Below are positions 23,753-38,996 of a stretch of 64,000 nucleotides of DNA, one piece after another; within the stretch, counting starts at the first letter, position 1; every line of letters starts with the position of its first letter. Source of the stretch: Actinomycetes bacterium (GTDB lineage: Bacteria > Actinomycetota > Thermoleophilia > BMS3ABIN01); NCBI GenBank assembly GCA_021791195.1, contig JAJYXB010000008.1:10921-74920 (forward strand). Reading direction: 5' to 3'. The position numbers and the translations under genes are program-made. Below the pieces are notes generated by a model that saw nothing but the letters and a program-made list of their open reading frames with translations, did no database searches and was not told where the DNA came from.

Positions 23753-24907
23753 CTACCTGTAAGCCACGGGCGCGTCGCGCAGAAAATCATTAAAGCGCCC
23801 GGCGACGATCGCCTGCCTGGCTCTACGGGTCAAGTCTACCAGAAAAGTGACATTGTGTAGAGACAGCAGCTGCAGGCCGAGGATCTCCTTCTGCGTGATC
23901 AGATGGCGGAGGTAGGCGCGGCTGAAGCTCTGGCAGGCGTAGCAGCGGCAACCGGGCTCCAGGGGACCGTCCTGCAAGGCATGAACGGCGTTGCGCAGGT
24001 TGAGGCTGCCGTCTGAGGTGAAGGCGCGACCGTTGCGCGCCACCCGCGTCGGCAGCACGCAGTCGAACATGTCGATGCCGGCGGCGATCGCCTCGAGGAT
24101 GCCGGCAGGATCGCCCAGCCCCATGAAGTAACGCGGCTTCTCCGCCGGCAGCAGGCCGGCGGTGAAACGCATCGTCTCCAGCATCGCTGCGCGCTCCTCA
24201 CCGACGCTAAGGCCGCCCAGCGCATAGCCGCCGAAACCGAGCTCAATAGTGCGCTCGGCGCTCTCGCGGCGCAGATCGAGGTCGGTGCCACCCTGGACGA
24301 TGCCCATCAGCAGCTGATCTTCGCGTGCCTGCGCCCGCCGGCAGCGGCCGGCCCACTCCGCCGTGCGCAGCACTGCCTGGCGCAGATATCCGCGGTCGAC
24401 TGCGGCCGGGGGGCACTCGTCGAAACACATGATGATGTCCGCGCCGAGCCGCTCCTGGACCGCGGTGGCCATCTCCGGGGTGAAGAAATGAGCCGAGCCG
24501 TCATAGAGCGAGCGGAACTCGACGCCGTCCCCCCTGATGCGGGCCGTCTCCCCCAGGCTGAATACCTGGAAGCCGCCGCTGTCGGTGAGGATCGGACCTT
24601 CCCAGGACATGAACCGGTGCAGGCCGCCCATAGCCGCCACCGTTTCCACCCCGGGACGGAAATAAAGATGATAGGCGTTGGCGAGGATGACGCCGGCGCC
24701 GGCTTCGGCCAGGTCCCGCGGCGAGAGCGTCTTCACCGTCGCCCGGGTGCCGACCGGCATGAAACAGGGGGTCTCCACGGCGCCGTGCGGGGTCATGAGC
24801 ACAGCGGCGCGCGCCTCGCCCTGGCGGGCCTCGATTTCAAAGGAAAACGGGTTCACGACAGGTTCTATCTTAGCTGAAAACCCGGCCGGGCAGCCCGGCG
24901 CATGCAC
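23753..24907 (-). CDS. tgt: Queuine tRNA-ribosyltransferase
   Basis: TGT family zinc site (CxCxxC...H) and catalytic Asp motifs. The N-terminus may begin at VNPFSFEI. Confidence 0.9.
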   Translation of the reverse strand: MHAPGCPAGFSAKIEPVVNPFSFEIEARQGEARAAVLMTPHGAVETPCFMPVGTRATVKTLSPRDLAEAGAGVILANAYHLYFRPGVETVAAMGGLHRFMSWEGPILTDSGGFQVFSLGETARIRGDGVEFRSLYDGSAHFFTPEMATAVQERLGADIIMCFDECPPAAVDRGYLRQAVLRTAEWAGRCRRAQAREDQLLMGIVQGGTDLDLRRESAERTIELGFGGYALGGLSVGEERAAMLETMRFTAGLLPAEKPRYFMGLGDPAGILEAIAAGIDMFDCVLPTRVARNGRAFTSDGSLNLRNAVHALQDGPLEPGCRCYACQSFSRAYLRHLITQKEILGLQLLSLHNVTFLVDLTRRARQAIVAGRFNDFLRDAPVAYR

Positions 24908-24931
24908 GGAATTATCCTTCTACCGGTTTTC

Positions 24932-25888
24932 ATGTTACAATCGCCAAGAATGTTCCTCCACGGTAGCAAGACAATCATCGCGGTAATAGCCATCGCAGCG
25001 GTAGTGCTCGGATTCATCGGCTTCAATTCCCTGCAAGGCAACAACGCCTTCAGGATTCCGGCTGCCGTGTCCTTAAGCAAGGGAGCCGGCACCCCCTCGG
25101 GCCCGCCGTCCGCGCCATCGCCGCTGGCGGCAGCCGCAGCCCCGGCGCCCGCTGCGCGGCCAGCAGCCACACCAGCAGCCGTCCCCGCCGCGCCCACCAT
25201 TGGCAAGTACGCGGTCATCATCGGCATCGACTACGACCATTACGATTTCGGTGCGGTCCACTACGCCGACCAGGATGCCGGCAGCGTGTACCGGATGCTC
25301 ACCCAGCAGAAGGGCTTCCTGCCGCAGAACATCAGGCTGCTGCAGAACAACCAGGCGACGCACGACAACATCATGTCGGCGCTCAGCTGGCTGGTGACCA
25401 ACCCCGGGATCAACGCCAACTCCGAAGTCGTTTTCTTTTACAGCGGGCACGGACTGCGCAACGGCGCGGGCGCCGGCCTGAACATTCCCGGCTTCCCGGC
25501 GGCTTCGGCGCTGGTGCCGTTCGACTTCTACAATTATGACTACCACAAGGGCGATGGTCTGATCTGGGATGGTGACCTGGCCGACAAGCTCTCGCTCATC
25601 CATCCGCACCTGATGTGGGTCTCGATCGACAGCTGCTTCGCCGGCGGCTTCGTCCGCCCGGGCATCGCCGGTCCCAACCGCATCATCACGACCTCCAGCC
25701 AGGCCGACGAGCTTTCCAACGAGCTGCCCAGCGCCCAGCGCGGCGTGTTCACCAATTTCCTCGTCGATCAGGGCATAGACAGGGGACTGCCGATCGAACA
25801 GGCTTTCTGGGGCGCCTTCCAGCAGTCGCAGGCCTACCATCAGGATCCGCAGATCTCCGACAACTACCCCCAGAGCGGCGACCTCTAG
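24932..25888 (+). CDS. Membrane-anchored caspase-like cysteine protease (peptidase C14 domain)
   Basis: N-terminal TM helix, a Pro/Ala-rich linker, then a caspase His (FFYSGHGL) / Cys (SIDSCFAGG) dyad. Alternative starts at 24902 or 24950. Confidence 0.7.
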   Translation: MLQSPRMFLHGSKTIIAVIAIAAVVLGFIGFNSLQGNNAFRIPAAVSLSKGAGTPSGPPSAPSPLAAAAAPAPAARPAATPAAVPAAPTIGKYAVIIGIDYDHYDFGAVHYADQDAGSVYRMLTQQKGFLPQNIRLLQNNQATHDNIMSALSWLVTNPGINANSEVVFFYSGHGLRNGAGAGLNIPGFPAASALVPFDFYNYDYHKGDGLIWDGDLADKLSLIHPHLMWVSIDSCFAGGFVRPGIAGPNRIITTSSQADELSNELPSAQRGVFTNFLVDQGIDRGLPIEQAFWGAFQQSQAYHQDPQISDNYPQSGDL

Positions 25889-25892
25889 ACAC

Positions 25893-25917
25893 CGCCCGGG
25901 TCTTATTACAGCAGCAG
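25893..25917. repeat. 25-bp direct repeat, left copy (CGCCCGGGTCTTATTACAGCAGCAG), duplicating the queA 3' end
   Basis: Identical to 27254-27278. The pair flanks a 1.34-kb lower-GC insert. Confidence 0.75.
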
Positions 25918-26266
25918 GCCGGCCCGGTGCAGCCGCCCGGTCCGCCCTATCCCGCCATGACCAGGATTCTTCCGTGAGGGGTCGGTACCCCGAGACGGCA
26001 AATGGATGTCTGATCGCACGAAAATGTGGTGGCCCTTGAAAGACAGGTCAGGAAAGAGCACCGCTTGTTAACACGGTTGAAAAATTCATCCTGGGAGGAA
26101 ATCTCCGTTTTCCCCTTGACAAGTACTAATCATGGAGGTCCACTTTAGTCCAAAGGTCTTGCTACCTGGATTCTCGGCAACATCACGAACGTTAAGGGTT
26201 GCCGTGTCATCATTCCCATCCGATCTCGATTAATCCCCAGCTCTTGGATTAGCAAACTATCTTTTT

Positions 26267-26941
26267 CTACGGCTCATATCCGGGCAGGAAGACCCAGAGG
26301 TCTTTTGTTATGAGCCACTGGCTATTATCTAACTCCAGGGTGACCGTATGCTGCTCCGCGTTGCTACCACCGCCTTCATCACGATTATTATTGTAATCCA
26401 TATAGTAGGTTTCGCTATATATATCTACGACCACGGTTGCTTTATCGCCCTGGACTGAGATCCCCTTATAATCCATCTTTGTGATTGTGCTTTCGGATCT
26501 GCCCACGCCGGCTGCGGCCGATTGCATTTCCACGTCGATGGTGTGCTGTCTCTTTTGTAATTCGCCAGAGGCAGCACTAAAATACCTGTTAAGATTATCC
26601 TTTAATTCCTGACTACGGCCTCGATTCTCATATAGCAACGTATCTCTCTCCGCTTGAAAAGCATCATGGACGACTTGCATTAGTTGCTCCCAGGTCTTTG
26701 GATCACCCGCCCATTCACGATCGCTCGGGTCATATTTTGGGGGCGCCTCAGCCAGAATGTTGGCAGTATCTTTTCGCCCCTCGACTGTAAAAGTCTGACC
26801 ATTTTTTTTAACTGTAAATACTTTAATATTTTGCTGATATGTGTCGCTGGCAGCGCTGTCTGCATGGTGAATTAAAAAAAGCGTCAAGGCCAAAGCTCCT
26901 GCCAAAAATGTCGCTATTAGTGCAATTATTATTTTTCTCAT
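26267..26941 (-). CDS. Hypothetical exported protein (signal-anchor) within the lower-GC insert
   Basis: 224-aa ORF with an N-terminal hydrophobic signal and AT-rich codon usage unlike the host genes. Confidence 0.5.
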   Translation of the reverse strand: MRKIIIALIATFLAGALALTLFLIHHADSAASDTYQQNIKVFTVKKNGQTFTVEGRKDTANILAEAPPKYDPSDREWAGDPKTWEQLMQVVHDAFQAERDTLLYENRGRSQELKDNLNRYFSAASGELQKRQHTIDVEMQSAAAGVGRSESTITKMDYKGISVQGDKATVVVDIYSETYYMDYNNNRDEGGGSNAEQHTVTLELDNSQWLITKDLWVFLPGYEP

Positions 26942-26958
26942 CTATTTTCCTGGCGGAT

Positions 26959-27192
26959 TCAAGTCTGAAGTGCAACGGTTAACATGGTTGACGTTTTGAA
27001 TAATACTTCATACGGAGTTTTGAATCCAAGCTTTTTCCTAGGCCTATGATTCAATCGATGCTCGGCCTCGGCGATCTCGTCGTTGGTGATAGTGGTAAAG
27101 TCGTGCTTCTTGGGGGAGTATTGCCGGATGAGCCCGTTGGTGTTCTCGTTTAGACCCCGCTCCCAGGAAGAGTAGGGATGGGCAAGATGCAC
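26959..27192 (-). mobile_element. IS30-family transposase C-terminal remnant (truncated pseudogene)
   Basis: HPYSSWERGLNENTNGLIRQY...RPRKKLGFKTPYEV matches the IS30 integrase-core C-terminus. The DDE core and N-terminus are absent. Confidence 0.7.
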
Positions 27193-27253
27193 GAGAAGCA
27201 GATGGACATCCTGCGCTGCCTGGCGAGCAGATAGCAGGCAGACACAATCCGGG

Positions 27254-27278
27254 CGCCCGGGTCTTATTACAGCAGCAG
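27254..27278. repeat. 25-bp direct repeat, right copy; contains the queA stop codon
   Basis: Identical to 25893-25917. Confidence 0.75.
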
Positions 27279-28286
27279 CATCGCGTCGCCGAAGCTGAAG
27301 AAGCGGTAGCGCTCCCTGACCGCCTCGCCGTACAGCCGCCGGGTCTCATCCTCGCCGGCAAATGCCATCACCAGCGCCAGCAGGGTCGATCGGGGCAGAT
27401 GAAAATTGGTCAGCAGGGCATCCACGGCCCGGAACCTGAAACCGGGCGTGATGAACAGATCGGTGTCGCCCGCGAGCGGGCGCGGCGGTTCGCTGAAGAC
27501 CGTTTCCAGCGTGCGCACCGCGGTAGTGCCCACGGCCACAACCCTGCCGCCGCGTAGCTTCGCTTCCAGGATAGCCTTATAGCTCCCGGCAGGCACGCTG
27601 TAGCTCTCGCTGTGGATGGCGTGCAGCGAAAGATCGTCCTCGCTCACCGGACGGAAGGTGTCCAGACCGACGTGCAGTGTCACCGGAGCCAGCGCCACTC
27701 CCTGGGCTTTTATGTCAGAGATCAGCTCCTCAGTAAAGTGAAGCCCGGCGGTGGGCGCCGCTGCCGAGCCCGGCTCCCGCGCGTAGACCGTCTGGTAGCG
27801 CTCCGGCTCCCTGAGCTTCTCCCTGATGTACGGCGGCAGCGGCATCTCGCCGACCTGCTCCAGCAGCTCCCCCGTCGCCAGCCGGCTGCGGTTCCGGACC
27901 AGCCAGCGGCCCTCACCCAGCCGCCGCTGCAGCTCGAAGACCGGTTCGGACTCCGTGTCGACTTCAAGCCGCATGCCCTCGCTCAACCGGGCGGAGGGCT
28001 TCAGCAGCGCCTCCCAGATCTTTGCCTGCCGCCGGCGCAGAAAGAGGATCTCGACGCGGCCACCCGTGGGCTTGCGGGCGAAAACCCGCGCCCGCAGCAC
28101 GCGCGACTCGTTGTAGGCAAGGATATCCCCCGGGCTCAGGAAAGCCGGCAGGTCGCGCATCTTCCGGTGCTGCAGCCGGCCGCTGGCGCGCTCCCAGACC
28201 ATCAGGCGGCTGCTGTCGCGGGGGACCAGCGGATGCTGCGCGATCAGCTCCGGAGGCAGGTGGTAGTCCAGCTCGCTGGTGAGCAC
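27267..28286 (-). CDS. queA: S-adenosylmethionine:tRNA ribosyltransferase-isomerase
   Basis: QueA family N-terminus MLTSELDYHLPPELIAQHP and full-length similarity. Confidence 0.95.
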   Translation of the reverse strand: MLTSELDYHLPPELIAQHPLVPRDSSRLMVWERASGRLQHRKMRDLPAFLSPGDILAYNESRVLRARVFARKPTGGRVEILFLRRRQAKIWEALLKPSARLSEGMRLEVDTESEPVFELQRRLGEGRWLVRNRSRLATGELLEQVGEMPLPPYIREKLREPERYQTVYAREPGSAAAPTAGLHFTEELISDIKAQGVALAPVTLHVGLDTFRPVSEDDLSLHAIHSESYSVPAGSYKAILEAKLRGGRVVAVGTTAVRTLETVFSEPPRPLAGDTDLFITPGFRFRAVDALLTNFHLPRSTLLALVMAFAGEDETRRLYGEAVRERYRFFSFGDAMLLL

Positions 28287-30163: not shown

Positions 30164-32530
30164 TCAGTTCCCCGTATCCAGCTCCGGCTTGCCGGTCGCC
30201 AGCACGCTTTCGGGCGCACCGGCCTCTTCCTCAACCGCGGCGGCATCCCGCCGGCAGAGTTTCGACGGCCACCAGTTCCACCTTCCCAGCAGCACCACCA
30301 CGGACGGCACCAGCAGCGTGCGGACGAAGAACGTGTCGAGCATGATGCCGAAGGCGATGGCGAAGCCGATCTGCTCCACCTGCGGGTTGCCACCGCTGAT
30401 GCCCAGCACGAAAAAGGTGCCGGCCAGTATCAGTCCGGCCGATGTGACAGTGCCGCCGGTGACGCTGATGGCCCTGGCCACCGCGTCGCGCAGCGATACA
30501 TGGTTGTGGGCCTCTTCGCGGATGCGGCTCATCACCAGGATGTTGTAATCCTCGCCTAATGCCATGGAAAAGACGAACATCAAAAACGGCAGGATGAAGT
30601 TGAGTCCTCCCTGCCCGCCCCAGTGGACGAACACGATCATCGCGAACCCCAGTGAAGAAATGTAGGAAAGGCCGACGGTCGCGATCAGATACCAGGGGGC
30701 GACCAGGCTTCTCAACATCACCGCCAGCAGCGCCGCGATGATCACCAGGACGATCGGGACGATGCGCCACAGGTCAGAGGTGGCCGCGCTGCTGACGTCG
30801 AAGGCGGCGGCATCCTGGCCGGCCACGCCGTTTTTGGCGGCGCCGACATCAGCCGCGACCCGGTTCAGCTGCGCCCGCACATCCGGGACCGCATGCATCG
30901 CCTCACTGGAGCCGGAGGCGCCCGCGCTCAGCTGGCCGTAAAACTGCACCGTGCGGCCATCCGGGCTGATGAACTGCGCCGTCGAACGGTAGAGCTGGTA
31001 GACCTGGATGGGCGTAACACCGGCAGGTAATTTCAGCTCCGCGAGCGATTTCAGTCCCGGAGAAGGCACTGGCGGCAGCGAAGCCGCCGGACCCAGCAGC
31101 TCATGCAGACGCGACAGCTGCTGCGGCGTCAGCGATGCCTTGCCGCCGGCAAAGGGTCCGCCGACGGTGCTGAACACCGGCGAGGCCTTCAGCTCCTGCT
31201 CCGCGGTGACCACGACGGCGAGGTTGTTCCAGACCGGCTGGCTGAAAGTGAGCAGCAGGCTCTCGGGATTGTTGTTGGCCGCCGGGAAATGCCTGGCGAG
31301 AACCGCCGTTCCCTGGGCGGAGTCGCTGCCGGAGCTGTTGGAGCTGTTGTCGGAGAAGCCGGTCGTCTGGTAGCCGGCGATACCGGCCGCCAGAGCGCCG
31401 AACAGGACGATGCCGAGAATCAGCGTCACCACAGGATGCCTGACGATGCGTACCGCCAGCCGGCCCCAGAGCCCGCTCTTCTGCGGCCGCTTCAGGTTGG
31501 ACGGCCAGAAAACCGCCCGGCCGAACACCGCCAGCAAGGCCGGAAGAAAGGTTAGCGCCGCCAGCAGCATCACGGCCAGCCCGATTGCCAGCCCCGGGCC
31601 GATCCCCTTGTAGATGCCAAAAGTGGCCAGCAGCAGGCTCAGCAGCGCCGCCATGACGGTAAAAGCGGAAAAAGTAATCGATTCACCCACGCGCGACATC
31701 GCCCGGACCACCGCGTCCCTGGGCGCCAGTCCGCGGCGCAGCTCCTCGCGGACACGGAATACCAGGAACAGGCCGTAGTCGGTGCCCGCTCCCAGGATGA
31801 GCACGATCAGCAGGATCTGCGTGATCTCTGAAACCTGCAGCCCCAGCTTGGTGGACTCGGCGATCAGCGGCCCGGAAAGCGCCAGCGAGATGCCCGCCGG
31901 CAGCAGCGTCACCAGCGGCGCCATCAGCGAGCGGTAGACGATCAGCAGCAAGATGATGATCAGCAGGATCGAATAGTTCTGGGCGGAGCTGCGGGAACGG
32001 TCGCCGGTAGCGTTGGCATCCACTGACTGCGCCAGCCTGCCGGTGAGGTGGAAAGCCAGTCCCGGCGGCGCTCCAACCTGGTTGAAAGCAGCGCGGATAC
32101 TGGAGACGACTGCCTGGGCCCCGGCGCCGAAATCAGCGTTGACGCCCACCATCGCCTCACCGGCCTGGCCGTCCGCCGAAACCCCCTGGTCGCGCACGGT
32201 GCTGACTTCGGGGATCCTGGTCACAGCCTGCTCCAGGCGCGTGACCGCCTGCTGGTCCGCCGCAGTCAGCGGACCCGATGCCCGCTCCACGACGATAGTC
32301 GACGTCGAAGTGGTCTGCTTGCCCTGGAATGGCCCTGCCTGCTGCGCCGCCTGCACGCTGGGCGAACCGGCCGGCAGGAACTGCGAGTTGTTGGACTGGG
32401 TGACGCTTGACAGGGACGGCAGCTTCTTGATCACCACCGGCACGGCGATGATCCAGGCGGCGATCACCAGCCAGCGGAAGCGGACGGAAAAACGGGCGAG
32501 GGCGCTAAACACGGGCGCTCCTCGCATCAC
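30164..32530 (-). CDS. MMPL/RND-superfamily membrane transporter (MmpL/YdfJ-like)
   Basis: 788-aa product with two 6-TM bundles, each following a soluble loop. Confidence 0.9.
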   Translation of the reverse strand: MMRGAPVFSALARFSVRFRWLVIAAWIIAVPVVIKKLPSLSSVTQSNNSQFLPAGSPSVQAAQQAGPFQGKQTTSTSTIVVERASGPLTAADQQAVTRLEQAVTRIPEVSTVRDQGVSADGQAGEAMVGVNADFGAGAQAVVSSIRAAFNQVGAPPGLAFHLTGRLAQSVDANATGDRSRSSAQNYSILLIIILLLIVYRSLMAPLVTLLPAGISLALSGPLIAESTKLGLQVSEITQILLIVLILGAGTDYGLFLVFRVREELRRGLAPRDAVVRAMSRVGESITFSAFTVMAALLSLLLATFGIYKGIGPGLAIGLAVMLLAALTFLPALLAVFGRAVFWPSNLKRPQKSGLWGRLAVRIVRHPVVTLILGIVLFGALAAGIAGYQTTGFSDNSSNSSGSDSAQGTAVLARHFPAANNNPESLLLTFSQPVWNNLAVVVTAEQELKASPVFSTVGGPFAGGKASLTPQQLSRLHELLGPAASLPPVPSPGLKSLAELKLPAGVTPIQVYQLYRSTAQFISPDGRTVQFYGQLSAGASGSSEAMHAVPDVRAQLNRVAADVGAAKNGVAGQDAAAFDVSSAATSDLWRIVPIVLVIIAALLAVMLRSLVAPWYLIATVGLSYISSLGFAMIVFVHWGGQGGLNFILPFLMFVFSMALGEDYNILVMSRIREEAHNHVSLRDAVARAISVTGGTVTSAGLILAGTFFVLGISGGNPQVEQIGFAIAFGIMLDTFFVRTLLVPSVVVLLGRWNWWPSKLCRRDAAAVEEEAGAPESVLATGKPELDTGN

Positions 32531-36156: not shown

Positions 36157-36426
36157 TTAGCCCTCGATCTTCAGCTCCATGTCGGGAATCGCTGATGCGA
36201 TCCGCTTTAGTTGGTCCGCGCTGAAGCCGTTACCGTAAAGTCCCATGAAAATCTTCCCCTTCAGCTGCGCTGCGGTGATTCCCGGGTCTTGCCTCCTGAT
36301 GCCGATCTCCATCAGTTGCTTGGCCGTCTCGAACATGTCGCTGGCCATCTGAAGGCGCTCGGCGGGAGTGCGCTCGGTAAACATTGAGAGCCACAACTTC
36401 TCTACGGCGGGTGGGGTGTCACGCAT
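36157..36426 (-). CDS. Hypothetical 89-aa protein, partner of the upstream nucleotidyltransferase-fold gene
   Basis: Overlaps the upstream gene by 8 nt. Lower GC. No recognised domain. Confidence 0.4.
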   Translation of the reverse strand: MRDTPPAVEKLWLSMFTERTPAERLQMASDMFETAKQLMEIGIRRQDPGITAAQLKGKIFMGLYGNGFSADQLKRIASAIPDMELKIEG

Positions 36427-36970
36427 TCTGCTGAGCCTTCCTTAACAAACCATCCACTTCGAGCCGTTTGGCCCATTCATGGAGGTAATCGTAGTCGAGC
36501 TTTTCGTGGGCTTTCAGAATCTGCTCGACATACCTCATCTGAAATTCCGGTTCGGAGTCCTTTGCCCAAACAAGCTTGGACAGAATAAGGTCTTCCGCCG
36601 CGACGACCGTAACCGGGACATCGCCCATCTCGATTCGCTGTCTGCGCGAGAACTCCCTCAGCCGGTAATCCTCGTCCTTTCTCACGATGAAATCGAATTT
36701 GACCGCCGATTCGGTGTGAATGATGTTGAACATGTCATGTCGCGCAATCGCTTCCCGCACGGCATGTTCATCGATGTAGAAGTCTTCCTTAAAAATTCTT
36801 ACGAGTTTGTCAACTAGTTCGGAAGAAATGTGAAGCACCATGTCGATGTCCCTCGTCATCCTGGGGGCCGAGTAAAGTGACATTGCAATGGAGCCGGTGA
36901 GCATATAATCGATGCCCGCTTCGTCGAGTCTGGACGTTACAACTTTTAGCAGATCGAACTCGGTGGTCAT
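36419..36970 (-). CDS. Nucleotidyltransferase-fold protein (minimal NTase/Lnu-like: GS...DIDMV)
   Basis: DYMLTGSIAMSLYSAPRMTRDIDMVL matches the Pol-beta superfamily hG[GS]...DxD signature. 183 aa. Its start overlaps the stop of the truncated HEPN ORF. Confidence 0.5.
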   Translation of the reverse strand: MTTEFDLLKVVTSRLDEAGIDYMLTGSIAMSLYSAPRMTRDIDMVLHISSELVDKLVRIFKEDFYIDEHAVREAIARHDMFNIIHTESAVKFDFIVRKDEDYRLREFSRRQRIEMGDVPVTVVAAEDLILSKLVWAKDSEPEFQMRYVEQILKAHEKLDYDYLHEWAKRLEVDGLLRKAQQNA

Positions 36971-37182
36971 GGCTTAATGCTTGGTCGGATCAGTCCCGCT
37001 GCCTGAGCTCCTCCAGAAACCTTGCTTGCGGCCTCACCGATAATCTCAATGGATTTAATGAGCGAAAGTGTCAACTTTCGGTCCGCGTCGAGATCGCTTC
37101 TTGTCTTGCCAGATATAAATGAAACAGCCTCGCGGGCTGAATCGAGCATGTGGCGAAGGCGAATGATATCGTCAGGCAGCAT
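36967..37182 (-). pseudogene. Truncated HepT-like HEPN (DUF86) toxin gene lacking the C-terminal Rx4-6H motif
   Basis: IIRLRHMLDSAREAVSF...LSLIKSIEIIGEAASKV matches the N-terminal two-thirds of DUF86. The ORF ends exactly where the 183-aa gene starts. Confidence 0.5.
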
Positions 37183-37480
37183 ACTGAACTTCAGCCTCAG
37201 CGATGACGTCATCGCGAAAATAACGACTCAGATCCTCGGGTGTGCGCAGATCCGCTTTTCTGCCCAGCATTTCGGAAAGCTCCCGCTCCATGCGGGCGAG
37301 ACGGATAAAACCCGGAACATGACCTGGCTCGAACTCGACCAGCACATCGATATCGCTGTCGGGCCGGAAGTCGCTTCGCAAAACAGATCCAAAGAAGGCG
37401 AACTTGCGGATATGATTGCTGCGGCAAAAGTCGGCAATCTTTGACTTGGGAATTTCGATCTTTGGCTTCATCGATGTCAT
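37172..37480 (-). CDS. MntA-like minimal nucleotidyltransferase (antitoxin-type)
   Basis: [24 protein letters not shown] is the classic MNT motif. The ORF is open to 37696 with a GC-rich 72-aa N-terminal extension of unclear status. Confidence 0.6.
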
Positions 37481-37734
37481 TTCATTATCAGCACAAAAGC
37501 GGTGGCCACATTGATGGGTCTCGTTGTAAGCGGGGCTCTTGTAGGCGGCTTCGTTGTTGCGGAAGTTTTCCACCAGCTCGGCGATGCGGGCGCGGGTTTC
37601 GGCGGGCACTGCCAGACGCGGCGTTTCCTCGGGCGCATTTGGCGCGGCTTGCCGCGCTCCCGTAGACGCATCCATAGCTTGGCCGTCAGTTGACATGAAG
37701 CAATTATATCACCAGGCGCGGACGGGCTCGGGAA

Positions 37735-38355
37735 TTATTGCTTCCTTTTTGCCGGCGCCTGCTTCTCGGGAGCGCGCTTCTTCTTTGCCGGCGCCTCGGG
37801 ATTCCAGTGAAATCCGATCTGATTCTTCTTCGGCTTCGGGGGTTCCATCAGTTGGCGGATGGCTTCGAAGACGACGCGGAATTGGGCATCGTATTTCTTC
37901 TCCAGCGAGTCGAGTTTGCGGGCCAGATCTGCGTGCGAGTAGGAAATCCTTTTCAGGCTGACAAATGCTCTCATGATTTCGATATTGACGCTAATTGCCC
38001 GCTTGCTCCTGAGAACACTCGAAAGCATCGCAACACCTTGTTCGGTGAAAGCGTAAGGCAGATACTTAGCATGCCGGCCGCGCTGGGAATCACCCGGTAA
38101 ACCCGTGGCGGTGGATGAGAGGTTTTCTGACGCAAAGAAGCTTTTGGCCTTTAATGCCGTTAATTCCGCCTTTAATAGCTGGAACATGAAATCATCCGGA
38201 AACCTCTCAATGTTCCGTTTGACAGCCTGGATCAATACCCGATGTTCGACTTCATAGAGCCGGGCCAGGTCATCGCTCAACATTACCTTGTTTCCACGTA
38301 GAACAACGATCTTTTTTTCAACGACTTCTTCCGAAACAATTGCAATTTCTTTCAC
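37735..38355 (-). CDS. ORF6N (KilA-N-like) domain DNA-binding protein
   Basis: [42 protein letters not shown]...[15 protein letters not shown] matches the ORF6N domain. GTG start with GGGAGG Shine-Dalgarno. Lys-rich tail. Confidence 0.75.
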
Positions 38356-38385
38356 CGCGTCCTCCCTTTTGATGATTCTCTAAGA

Positions 38386-38398
38386 TCACAAATTGTGA
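38386..38398. promoter_or_regulatory. Palindromic operator-like site TCACAA-A-TTGTGA upstream of the ORF6N gene
   Basis: Perfect 6-bp half-sites located 31-43 nt upstream of the GTG start, in an AT-rich spacer. Confidence 0.4.
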
Positions 38399-38564
38399 CC
38401 TTAAAAAAGCCTTTTCCAGATAAAGGAGATCATATCTGCTGGGCCGGACGGATGTTGTCAGAGGCGGCGACGGGAAGGTTCTTTGCTTCACTCGGGATGG
38501 CACAGGGCAAGGAGGGGTCTACCGGGTAGATATCCGGTCTAAATATACGGCCTTGAATTATTGC

Positions 38565-38996
38565 CTACCCCGGCATCAGCGCCGCGATGCCCTTTGGCAG
38601 CGCCGCCCTGATCTTCTCCACCTCGCCGTGGTCGAGATGCAGCGTGATCGTTTCCAGCACGGTGCTGGTCATGCGCCTGACGTCGAGCCCCTCATCACGG
38701 TCATAGATGAAGCGCCGTGCGATCTCATCGAGGAACTCCTGCCGGTTCATCTTGACCGGCACACGGGCGGGCGCCCAGCCCTCGTAATAGATGCCCCGCA
38801 CCAGCTCGGGCAGCTGGGCGCCGAGGCTGGCGGCGGCGTTGACAGGCAGCCGGTCCCTGAGTGTGTGCAGCACCACCCTCATGGCCAGCAGCGCCTCGTC
38901 CGGCCGGCCCTGCCAGCCCATCTCCCGCTCGATCTCCGAGAGGATGCGGTTGGTCTTTTCGACTGTGGTGCTGATCGCGGCAACGTTCTCAGCCAT
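38565..38996 (-). CDS. DUF2267 domain protein
   Basis: 143-aa product with the DUF2267-like pattern (LPELVRGIYYEGWAP). Confidence 0.7.
   Translation of the reverse strand: MAENVAAISTTVEKTNRILSEIEREMGWQGRPDEALLAMRVVLHTLRDRLPVNAAASLGAQLPELVRGIYYEGWAPARVPVKMNRQEFLDEIARRFIYDRDEGLDVRRMTSTVLETITLHLDHGEVEKIRAALPKGIAALMPG

Follow-up and report, generated by a model that had tools for sequence, protein, structure and literature searches.

Insertion with long target duplication is the term associated with Nobusato 2000 and with Furuta, Abe and Kobayashi 2010. The described cases are restriction-modification cassettes and were selected for repeats of >30 bp (PMC2853133); insertions of this kind without a mobility gene are documented, some of them overlapping gene 3′ ends (PMC2853133). 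Long duplications are also formed by IS1630, an IS30-family element of Mycoplasma fermentans, which generates 19–26-bp repeats (PMC2853133) that abut the IS termini, whereas canonical IS30 target duplications are 2 bp (PMC9333248). In homology-facilitated illegitimate recombination (HFIR), homology serves as the anchor for one DNA end, while the other end joins by an illegitimate event (PMC3240628); the usual effect on recipient DNA is deletion rather than duplication.

We compared these systems with a repeat-flanked segment lying between queA and a caspase-like gene in a 64-kb stretch of DNA (the window, meaning the whole stretch analysed). The gap between queA and the C14-peptidase gene is a slot whose content differs from strain to strain; a single uncultured, Thermoleophilia-like species group has five or more alleles of it, and the window carries the most reworked of them. 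The locus is an ordinary, multi-step, decayed islet between two convergent genes. It took shape in four or more small, separate events, of which the one that made the 25-bp direct repeat is most likely the latest.

The 25-mer CGCCCGGGTCTTATTACAGCAGCAG occurs as two exact copies in the window, at 25893–25917 and 27254–27278, and a search of the window allowing 3 mismatches revealed no third copy. Shuffled controls gave an expectation of 0 chance copies in 100 shuffles, and base composition alone predicts ~2e-10 extra copies. The two copies are spaced 1361 bp apart, with 1336 bp between them, and their identity ends at exactly 25 bp on both sides. The left copy begins 4 bp past the stop codon of the caspase-like gene. 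Read on the minus strand, the right copy is CTG CTG CTG TAA, the L-L-L-stop end of queA, followed by 13 bp, confirming the earlier note's report of a duplicated queA 3′ end with the last codons and TAA in the right copy. The copies are 100% identical even though intergenic DNA here varies between alleles, which fits a recent origin without proving one. The repeat is most likely a recombination scar without a function, although recombination between its copies could remove the insert precisely and completely.

GC content falls to 0.38–0.50 across ~26000–27100, compared with 0.62–0.72 in the flanks, and averages ~0.47 between the copies against 0.63 for the window. The AT-richer segment that had been described between the copies is therefore real in its GC drop, but the low GC reaches neither repeat: host-type DNA lies just inside both, at 25918–25968 (GC 0.75) and 27184–27253 (GC 0.59). 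The coding content of the insert is restricted to a 224-aa protein and an IS30 fragment. Among the called genes, with precomputed Pfam annotation, neither the insert nor the 6 kb flanking it on each side included a recombinase or integrase gene. No inverted repeats adjoined the direct repeats or linked the insert ends in a test for a 2-kb IS30 element with a passenger gene, no Rfam family, tRNA or tmRNA was detected in the region or the whole window, and promoter and terminator scans of the region were at background level. The features, in window coordinates, are as follows.

24902–25888, plus strand: caspase-like (Peptidase_C14) gene, convergent with queA.
25893–25917: left, caspase-side copy of the 25-mer, an extra, non-functional copy of the queA terminus.
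25918–25968: upstream (promoter-side) DUF1003 remnant, 51 bp, homologous to L053 5068–5104.
25969–27183: foreign low-GC segment, cargo1, 1215 bp, GC 0.47, replacing ~550 bp of the DUF1003 gene.
25969–26266: foreign non-coding DNA, 298 bp, GC 0.48, downstream of the 224-aa gene.
26267–26941, minus strand: intact 224-aa cargo gene encoding an N-terminal membrane anchor and a predicted NTF2-like domain.
26959–27183, minus strand: IS30-family transposase remnant, 74 C-terminal codons plus stop (AHPYSSWERGLNENTNGL...LQT, then stop).
27184–27253, plus strand: native DUF1003 remnant, the last 16 codons and stop (27184–27234, KMHEKQMDILRCLASR, then stop) plus 19 bp after the stop.
27254–27278: right, original copy of the 25-mer, comprising the last 3 queA codons and TAA (27267–27278) plus 13 bp downstream.
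27267–28286, minus strand: queA (S-adenosylmethionine:tRNA ribosyltransferase-isomerase), intact (PF02547, E 1e-123).

The host-type DNA inside the repeats was traced to a DUF1003 gene that is intact in the allele L053. On the queA side, 217 bp of the window (27400–27184, the queA 3′ end plus the remnant) aligned to L053 4304–4520 with 93.5% identity, the homology running through the right repeat and 70 bp further inward; the L053 protein ends in KMQEEQMDILRNLASR before its stop, compared with the KMHEKQMDILRCLASR end in the window. On the caspase side, window 25968–25929 matched L053 5068–5104, upstream of DUF1003, and 25968–25939 was identical to the last 30 bp of another allele, L056. Because the inner borders of both repeats are homologous to the two ends of the DUF1003 cassette, the 1336 bp between the repeats is a nest, a DUF1003-cassette shell around a foreign 1215-bp core. 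The repeats thus bracket the wreck of a native gene, the middle of which foreign DNA later overwrote. The foreign character proposed for the lower-GC DNA was confirmed for 25969–27183.

At the right end of this core, the transposase remnant aligned to positions 218–267 of the 267-position NCBIfam IS30 model (NF033563), corresponding to ~19% of the model. Its score (E 6.6e-21, 75.2 bits) lies just below the 80-bit full-protein cut-off because only these positions are present; the 85-aa version in the allele L055 reached 95.5 bits. The remnant contains the NEN glutamate region without the two aspartates, and Pfam returned only a sub-threshold rve_3 match. A homologue search recovered 453 proteins, many of them named IS30 family, with ~70% identity to hundreds, and no near-identical full-length IS30 copy; within the 64-kb window there was no other copy of IS30 or of any part of the insert. 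Neither IS30 terminal inverted repeats nor a 2–3-bp target duplication could be identified at the element, whose left end is deleted and whose right end would lie at ~26950, judging from assembly break points. A C-terminal IS30-family fragment missing its DDE core, as the earlier note had described, is therefore present. Of the 77 transposase codons then counted, 74 form a genuine IS30 tail and the first 3 are antisense DUF1003 sequence. The reported cut near the right repeat did not hold, as a deletion at a 2-bp microhomology has joined the remnant to the final 16 DUF1003 codons.

The fusion junction, at which DUF1003 sequence gives way to IS30 sequence, reads ...gtgcatctt/gcccatccc (slashes mark junctions here and below). 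The tt at 27184–27185 is the microhomology and is common to both parents, and the gcc after it also follows an N-terminal 'gtctt' of the L053 DUF1003 gene. In L055, the IS30 ORF extends 33 bp further upstream (..IAKNLEADIYFAHPYSS), aligning from model position 207 as against 218, and these first 33 bp continue the transposase frame (..IAKNLEADIYF/AHPYSS). The longer IS30 in L055, together with the shared junction bases, shows that the truncation was secondary: a microhomology deletion took the 5′ four fifths of the IS along with any DUF1003 sequence that preceded it. With four fifths deleted and the rest fused to DUF1003, the IS30 element is dead.

The 224-aa ORF noted between the copies is a real gene, starting 17 bp downstream of the IS30 remnant. 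Its product belongs to no Pfam or NCBIfam family and had no match in viral contigs or plasmids. AlphaFold returned a membrane anchor and a confident core, with pLDDT >90 for 118 residues, and Foldseek matched the core to NTF2-like domains (the ARC6/PARC6 intermembrane domain, VirB8/CagV, Tim44 and the CaMKII hub); the product is accordingly predicted to be a membrane-anchored NTF2-like protein. Only six homologues, at 42–60% identity, were found among 5.8 billion proteins. The homologues come from lower-GC actinobacterial MAGs. In all four of the contigs that we read they lay in variable regions with toxin–antitoxin genes or transposase fragments, and in two of the four the homologue lay directly downstream of an Amidase_6 gene. 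Contig GC was 0.46–0.50 in three and 0.60 in the fourth, as compared with 0.47 in cargo1. These contexts and compositions suggest a lower-GC actinobacterial donor, and that the IS replaced the upstream operon partner of the gene. The 298 bp of non-coding DNA downstream had no Rfam match and no homologue beside the 224-aa homologues in these donor-like loci. Compared with its L055 counterpart, the gene carries 8 synonymous and 6 non-synonymous codon differences and is still intact, suggesting that it is probably under continued selection; this orphan membrane-protein gene is probably still functional.

The allele comparison drew on MAGs labelled Thermoleophilia or Actinomycetota that encode QueA variants 96–99% identical to that of the window, recovered by protein search; exact-protein look-ups that started from QueA and the 224-aa protein of the window itself yielded nothing but filled alleles at 100% identity. 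One type of allele is empty. In L057 and L058 the junction is ...GATGCTGCTGCTGTAATAAGACCCGGGCG/gtgcCTAgagg, comprising one 25-mer, directly followed by gtgcCTA, and leaving 17 bp between the two stop codons; L050–L052 are the same with an additional 6-bp tandem duplication. The empty site that the earlier note had predicted, where the 25-mer stands only once in the gap from queA to the caspase-like gene, was thereby found in close relatives, with flanks 98.4–99% (also given as 98.5–99%) identical to those of the window. An empty allele bearing the window's own gtgtCTA variant (single-25-mer junction ...TAATAAGACCCGGGCGGTGTCTAGAGG) was not seen among them. L053 and L054 carry an intact 170-aa DUF1003 gene in the slot (PF06210, E 1e-38; GC 0.60), on the strand opposite queA. 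Their flanks are ~95% identical to those of the other alleles, which are 98.1–99.8% identical to each other, placing L053 and L054 as the outgroup and the empty alleles in the ingroup.

The two remaining informative alleles contain foreign DNA. L055 carries the same IS30 and 224-aa cargo1, 97% identical, and is collinear with window 27185–25745 at 96% identity, without a second 25-mer. L056 has an unrelated 2.6-kb low-GC segment (cargo2, GC 0.45) in the DUF1003 upstream region, with DUF1003 itself internally deleted; cargo2 encodes proteins of 308 and 262 aa with no Pfam domain and has no flanking repeat, and the flanks are 99.3–99.6% identical to the window type. Contigs end on the queA side of L055 and on the caspase side of L056. 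The flanks of L056 and L059 are 99.6% identical and their cargo differs. Small duplications occur at the same spot elsewhere, namely a 24-bp tandem in L054 and the 6-bp tandem in L050. The population clearly exchanges alleles.

The caspase-side junction carries the key evidence on the origin of the second 25-mer. L053 reads ...gatcgggccgg/gcggtgtCTA and L055 reads ...gggtccggccgg/acggtgcCTA, whereas the window reads ...caccgggccgg/cctgctgctgtaataagacccgg/gcggtgtCTA. Relative to L053 and L055, the left copy thus adds a block of 23 bp that has ccgg on either side. All that the other alleles show at this point is the 7-bp CCGG(G/A)CG, a motif that also forms the end of the queA-side 25-mer. L055 has the cargo and the upstream remnant in common with the window, and L053 serves as the outgroup, so that a single gain in the window lineage suffices; otherwise the same loss must have happened twice, or once in combination with a recombination placed precisely at the junction. 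This polarity of the 23-bp difference is a matter of parsimony over few alleles in an allele-exchanging population. The second 25-mer is most likely, with moderate confidence, a lineage-specific, late and non-tandem illegitimate duplication of 23 bp rather than an att or target duplication.

We therefore favour, at a probability of roughly 0.6, a multi-step model of the slot in which the repeat is a late scar that followed both DUF1003 and cargo1. Comparison of the alleles shows that the ancestral allele of this species group had a DUF1003 gene of host composition between the two stop codons, with nothing but the 7-bp CCGG(G/A)CG repeat at its borders. About 1.2 kb of foreign low-GC DNA, comprising an IS30-family element and the orphaned NTF2-like membrane-protein gene that follows Amidase_6 elsewhere, then overwrote most of DUF1003; it probably entered by illegitimate recombination, or else by an IS-associated insertion that decayed afterwards. 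Deletion at tt/ttgcc in the window lineage next removed about four fifths of the transposase, joining the IS30 codon 74 from the end to the last 16 DUF1003 codons. Finally, a 23-bp copy of the queA terminus most likely arose at the caspase-side boundary, turning the 7-bp repeat into a perfect 25-bp one. This copy may stem from a replication template switch primed on CCGGRCG, from a tandem cassette duplication that later collapsed through CCGGRCG, or from HFIR with an empty allele; the present data fit all three of these likely causes. The empty sister alleles look exactly like the product of deletion between the 7-bp or the 25-bp repeats.

The most serious rival traces the repeat back to the insertion of the DUF1003 cassette itself, which would have created a long target duplication at an originally empty site between queA and the caspase-like gene. 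On this view the cargo came afterwards, inside the cassette, and L053/L054 and L055 later lost 23 bp of the caspase-side copy between ccgg repeats. The DUF1003 remnants do directly adjoin both repeats in the window, the empty alleles have just the form expected of the site before insertion, the 4-bp ccgg flanks of the 23-bp difference also fit a deletion, and the documented mobility-gene-free insertions with long target duplication show that such an event has precedents (PMC2853133). We nevertheless consider this history unlikely and less parsimonious than the late-scar model. L055 combines the cargo and upstream remnant of the window with the short form of L053, so that the same deletion would have had to occur twice, or once together with a recombination that fell exactly on the junction. 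Presence of DUF1003 in the outgroup would also make the empty state a long-kept polymorphism or an introgression; moreover, an old duplication sits poorly with zero differences between the repeat copies amid variable intergenic DNA, and no duplicated queA end was found in more distant relatives. A broader and more doubtful version makes the slot a dedicated cassette-exchange site, in which envelope-protein cassettes (DUF1003, DUF6812, the NTF2-like protein and the pair of 308-aa and 262-aa proteins) are inserted with a long target duplication by a trans-acting mechanism and only the window keeps the unshortened 25-bp duplication. If it were true, insertion with long target duplication would extend beyond restriction-modification systems and into an uncultured actinobacterial lineage.

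The earlier note had instead taken the repeats as the signature of an integrated element or att-site duplication that has since decayed. Spelled out, this model makes them attL and attR of an element that used a site-specific recombinase to target the queA 3′ end and brought a replacement gene end, its integrase since lost and the rest decayed to 1.3 kb. Relatives with a single-copy empty site, the overlap of the repeat with a gene 3′ end, as at many att sites, and the partly foreign DNA between the copies all invite this reading, but it is strongly disfavoured already. Native DUF1003 remnants of 51 bp and 70 bp separate the repeats from the foreign DNA, L055 has the same cargo without the second 25-mer, and the genes called in the insert and in the 6 kb flanking each side include no integrase or recombinase. 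The lack of a tRNA gene in the window, of viral or plasmid matches to the 224-aa protein, and of queA-end duplications in more distant relatives tells against it as well. Least probable of all, in our assessment, is an IS1630-like long target-site duplication by the IS30-family transposase with internal rearrangement later. An IS30-family remnant is indeed present, the 1336-bp span between the repeats is IS-sized, and the range of IS1630 duplications would accommodate 25 bp (PMC2853133). However, the fragment touches neither repeat, with 70 bp of DUF1003 between it and the right copy, and another 1 kb of unrelated DNA lies beyond its 3′ end. There are no terminal inverted repeats beside the direct repeats, L055 has a more complete IS30 without the second 25-mer, and the duplications of canonical IS30 are far shorter (2 bp; PMC9333248).

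Set against the described systems, the locus shares something with each. The match of 74 C-terminal residues to the IS30 model, the lower GC and the strain-variable setting are those of a decayed IS30-family IS, but the element here is fused to a host gene fragment and the 25-bp repeat does not lie at the IS ends. As in insertion with long target duplication, the repeats measure tens of bp, no working mobility gene is present, a gene 3′ end is overlapped, and a relative without the insert has one sequence to which both copies correspond. Unlike the cases of Furuta and colleagues, the repeat is 25 bp rather than >30 bp, the cargo is not a restriction-modification system and an IS30 remnant is present; the repeat is also missing where sister strains have the cargo or the DUF1003 cassette, suggesting that it arose after the cargo and not with it. 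IS1630 belongs to the same IS family and its 19–26-bp range includes 25 bp, whereas the repeats here do not abut IS termini and the allele with the longer IS30 has no duplication. The junctions, with 1–5 bp of microhomology (tt/ttgcc, ccgg, CCGGRCG), and the exchange of cargo between strains with near-identical flanks recall HFIR and microhomology scars, although HFIR usually deletes recipient DNA without duplicating any.

The locus reveals no new mobile element or mechanism. Its textbook-looking signature of repeats, low-GC interior and transposase fragment proves to be the sum of at least four small events, and the comparison of sister alleles shows how misleading a single genome can be. The slot could serve as a natural marker for tracking strains in metagenomic populations, and for the study of illegitimate recombination and allele exchange.

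The window arrangement is not an assembly artefact, as exact-protein look-ups found the identical structure in >15 contigs of independent origin. Their sources are four NCBI MAGs together with ENA, JGI and Logan assemblies of different samples. The contigs are 99.9–100% identical, with both repeat copies 1361 bp apart, and the arrangement is fixed in one lineage. A metagenome contig collection that does not include this clade gave no match to the 22-mer CTGCTGCTGTAATAAGACCCGG or to the caspase-like protein. A QueA search of the species-representative genome set did not recover this species, and the nearest QueA there was 68% identical; in those MAGs, the position between queA and the caspase-like gene is taken by a DUF6812 gene, sometimes together with an amidase gene.

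A different low-GC (0.45) cargo of 2.6 kb occupied the same queA/caspase slot as in the window in one of the relatives' contigs, L056, as follows.

L056:3480-6060, cargo with coding sequences for two proteins, one a polytopic membrane protein of 308 aa and the other a signal-peptide protein of 262 aa

No Pfam domain was detected in either protein, and no flanking repeat was present around the cargo, which replaced 14 bp upstream of the partly deleted DUF1003 in a strain with flanks 99.3–99.6% identical to those of the window type. Short contigs from several samples that overlap the slot (L028, L029, L036 and L038) ended at fixed window positions: 25939, 26979/26980 and 27218. Co-occurrence of window-type and L056-type alleles within the same samples accounts for the breaks at 25939 and 27218, by way of a 30-mer that the two alleles share and a single-nucleotide difference at 27217. 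From the break at 26979/26980, it seems that related IS30 copies exist elsewhere and have sequence in common with the window remnant down to about 26950, which would place the right end of the IS about 8 bp past the transposase stop.

The NTF2-like membrane protein of 224 aa encoded in the window slot had homologues on three further contigs, at L045:3438-4784, L047:5374-6672 and L040:5519-6729. In two of these lineages, the homologue lay directly 3′ of an Amidase_6 (PF12671) gene, forming a two-gene unit; in the third, a DUF772 transposase fragment stood in place of the upstream partner and overlapped the start of the homologue gene, paralleling the IS30 fragment beside the 224-aa gene of the window.

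At greater depth, in distant metagenome-assembled genomes with QueA 65–68% identical (L001:1225-1563 and L002:941-2237), the slot was occupied by a DUF6812 gene, accompanied in L002 by an N-acetylmuramoyl-L-alanine-amidase-like gene. Slot contents differed at each phylogenetic depth examined. The region near queA also varied, at the following gene upstream of DUF3048/queH/queA.

Window 30164-32530, MMPL-family transporter gene, 788 aa

Only a 94–133-aa C-terminal fragment of this transporter was left in both empty-site lineages (L050:3724-4125 and L057:3840-4124), a difference from the window of about 2 kb that adjoins ruvB. Elsewhere, the only other low-GC islet within the 64-kb window (36400-38600, GC 0.47–0.50) carried small genes resembling nucleotidyltransferase-type toxin–antitoxin components and a gene for an ORF6N/KilA-N-like protein, and its borders had no direct repeats of at least 14 bp.

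The caspase-like protein (window 24902-25888) comprised a hydrophobic N-terminal segment, an Ala/Pro-rich linker and then the C14 domain, and matched the NCBIfam 'caspase, EACC1-associated type' model weakly (34 bits; cut-off 140). Independent small tandem duplications were observed in GC-rich DNA adjoining the stop of its gene: one of 24 bp (GGCTGCGGCTGCGCCGGATCGG...) in an intact DUF1003 allele (L054:6760-6830) and one of 6 bp (CCTAGG/CCTAGA) in an empty-site lineage (L050:7030-7050). This GC-rich spot seems prone to slippage.
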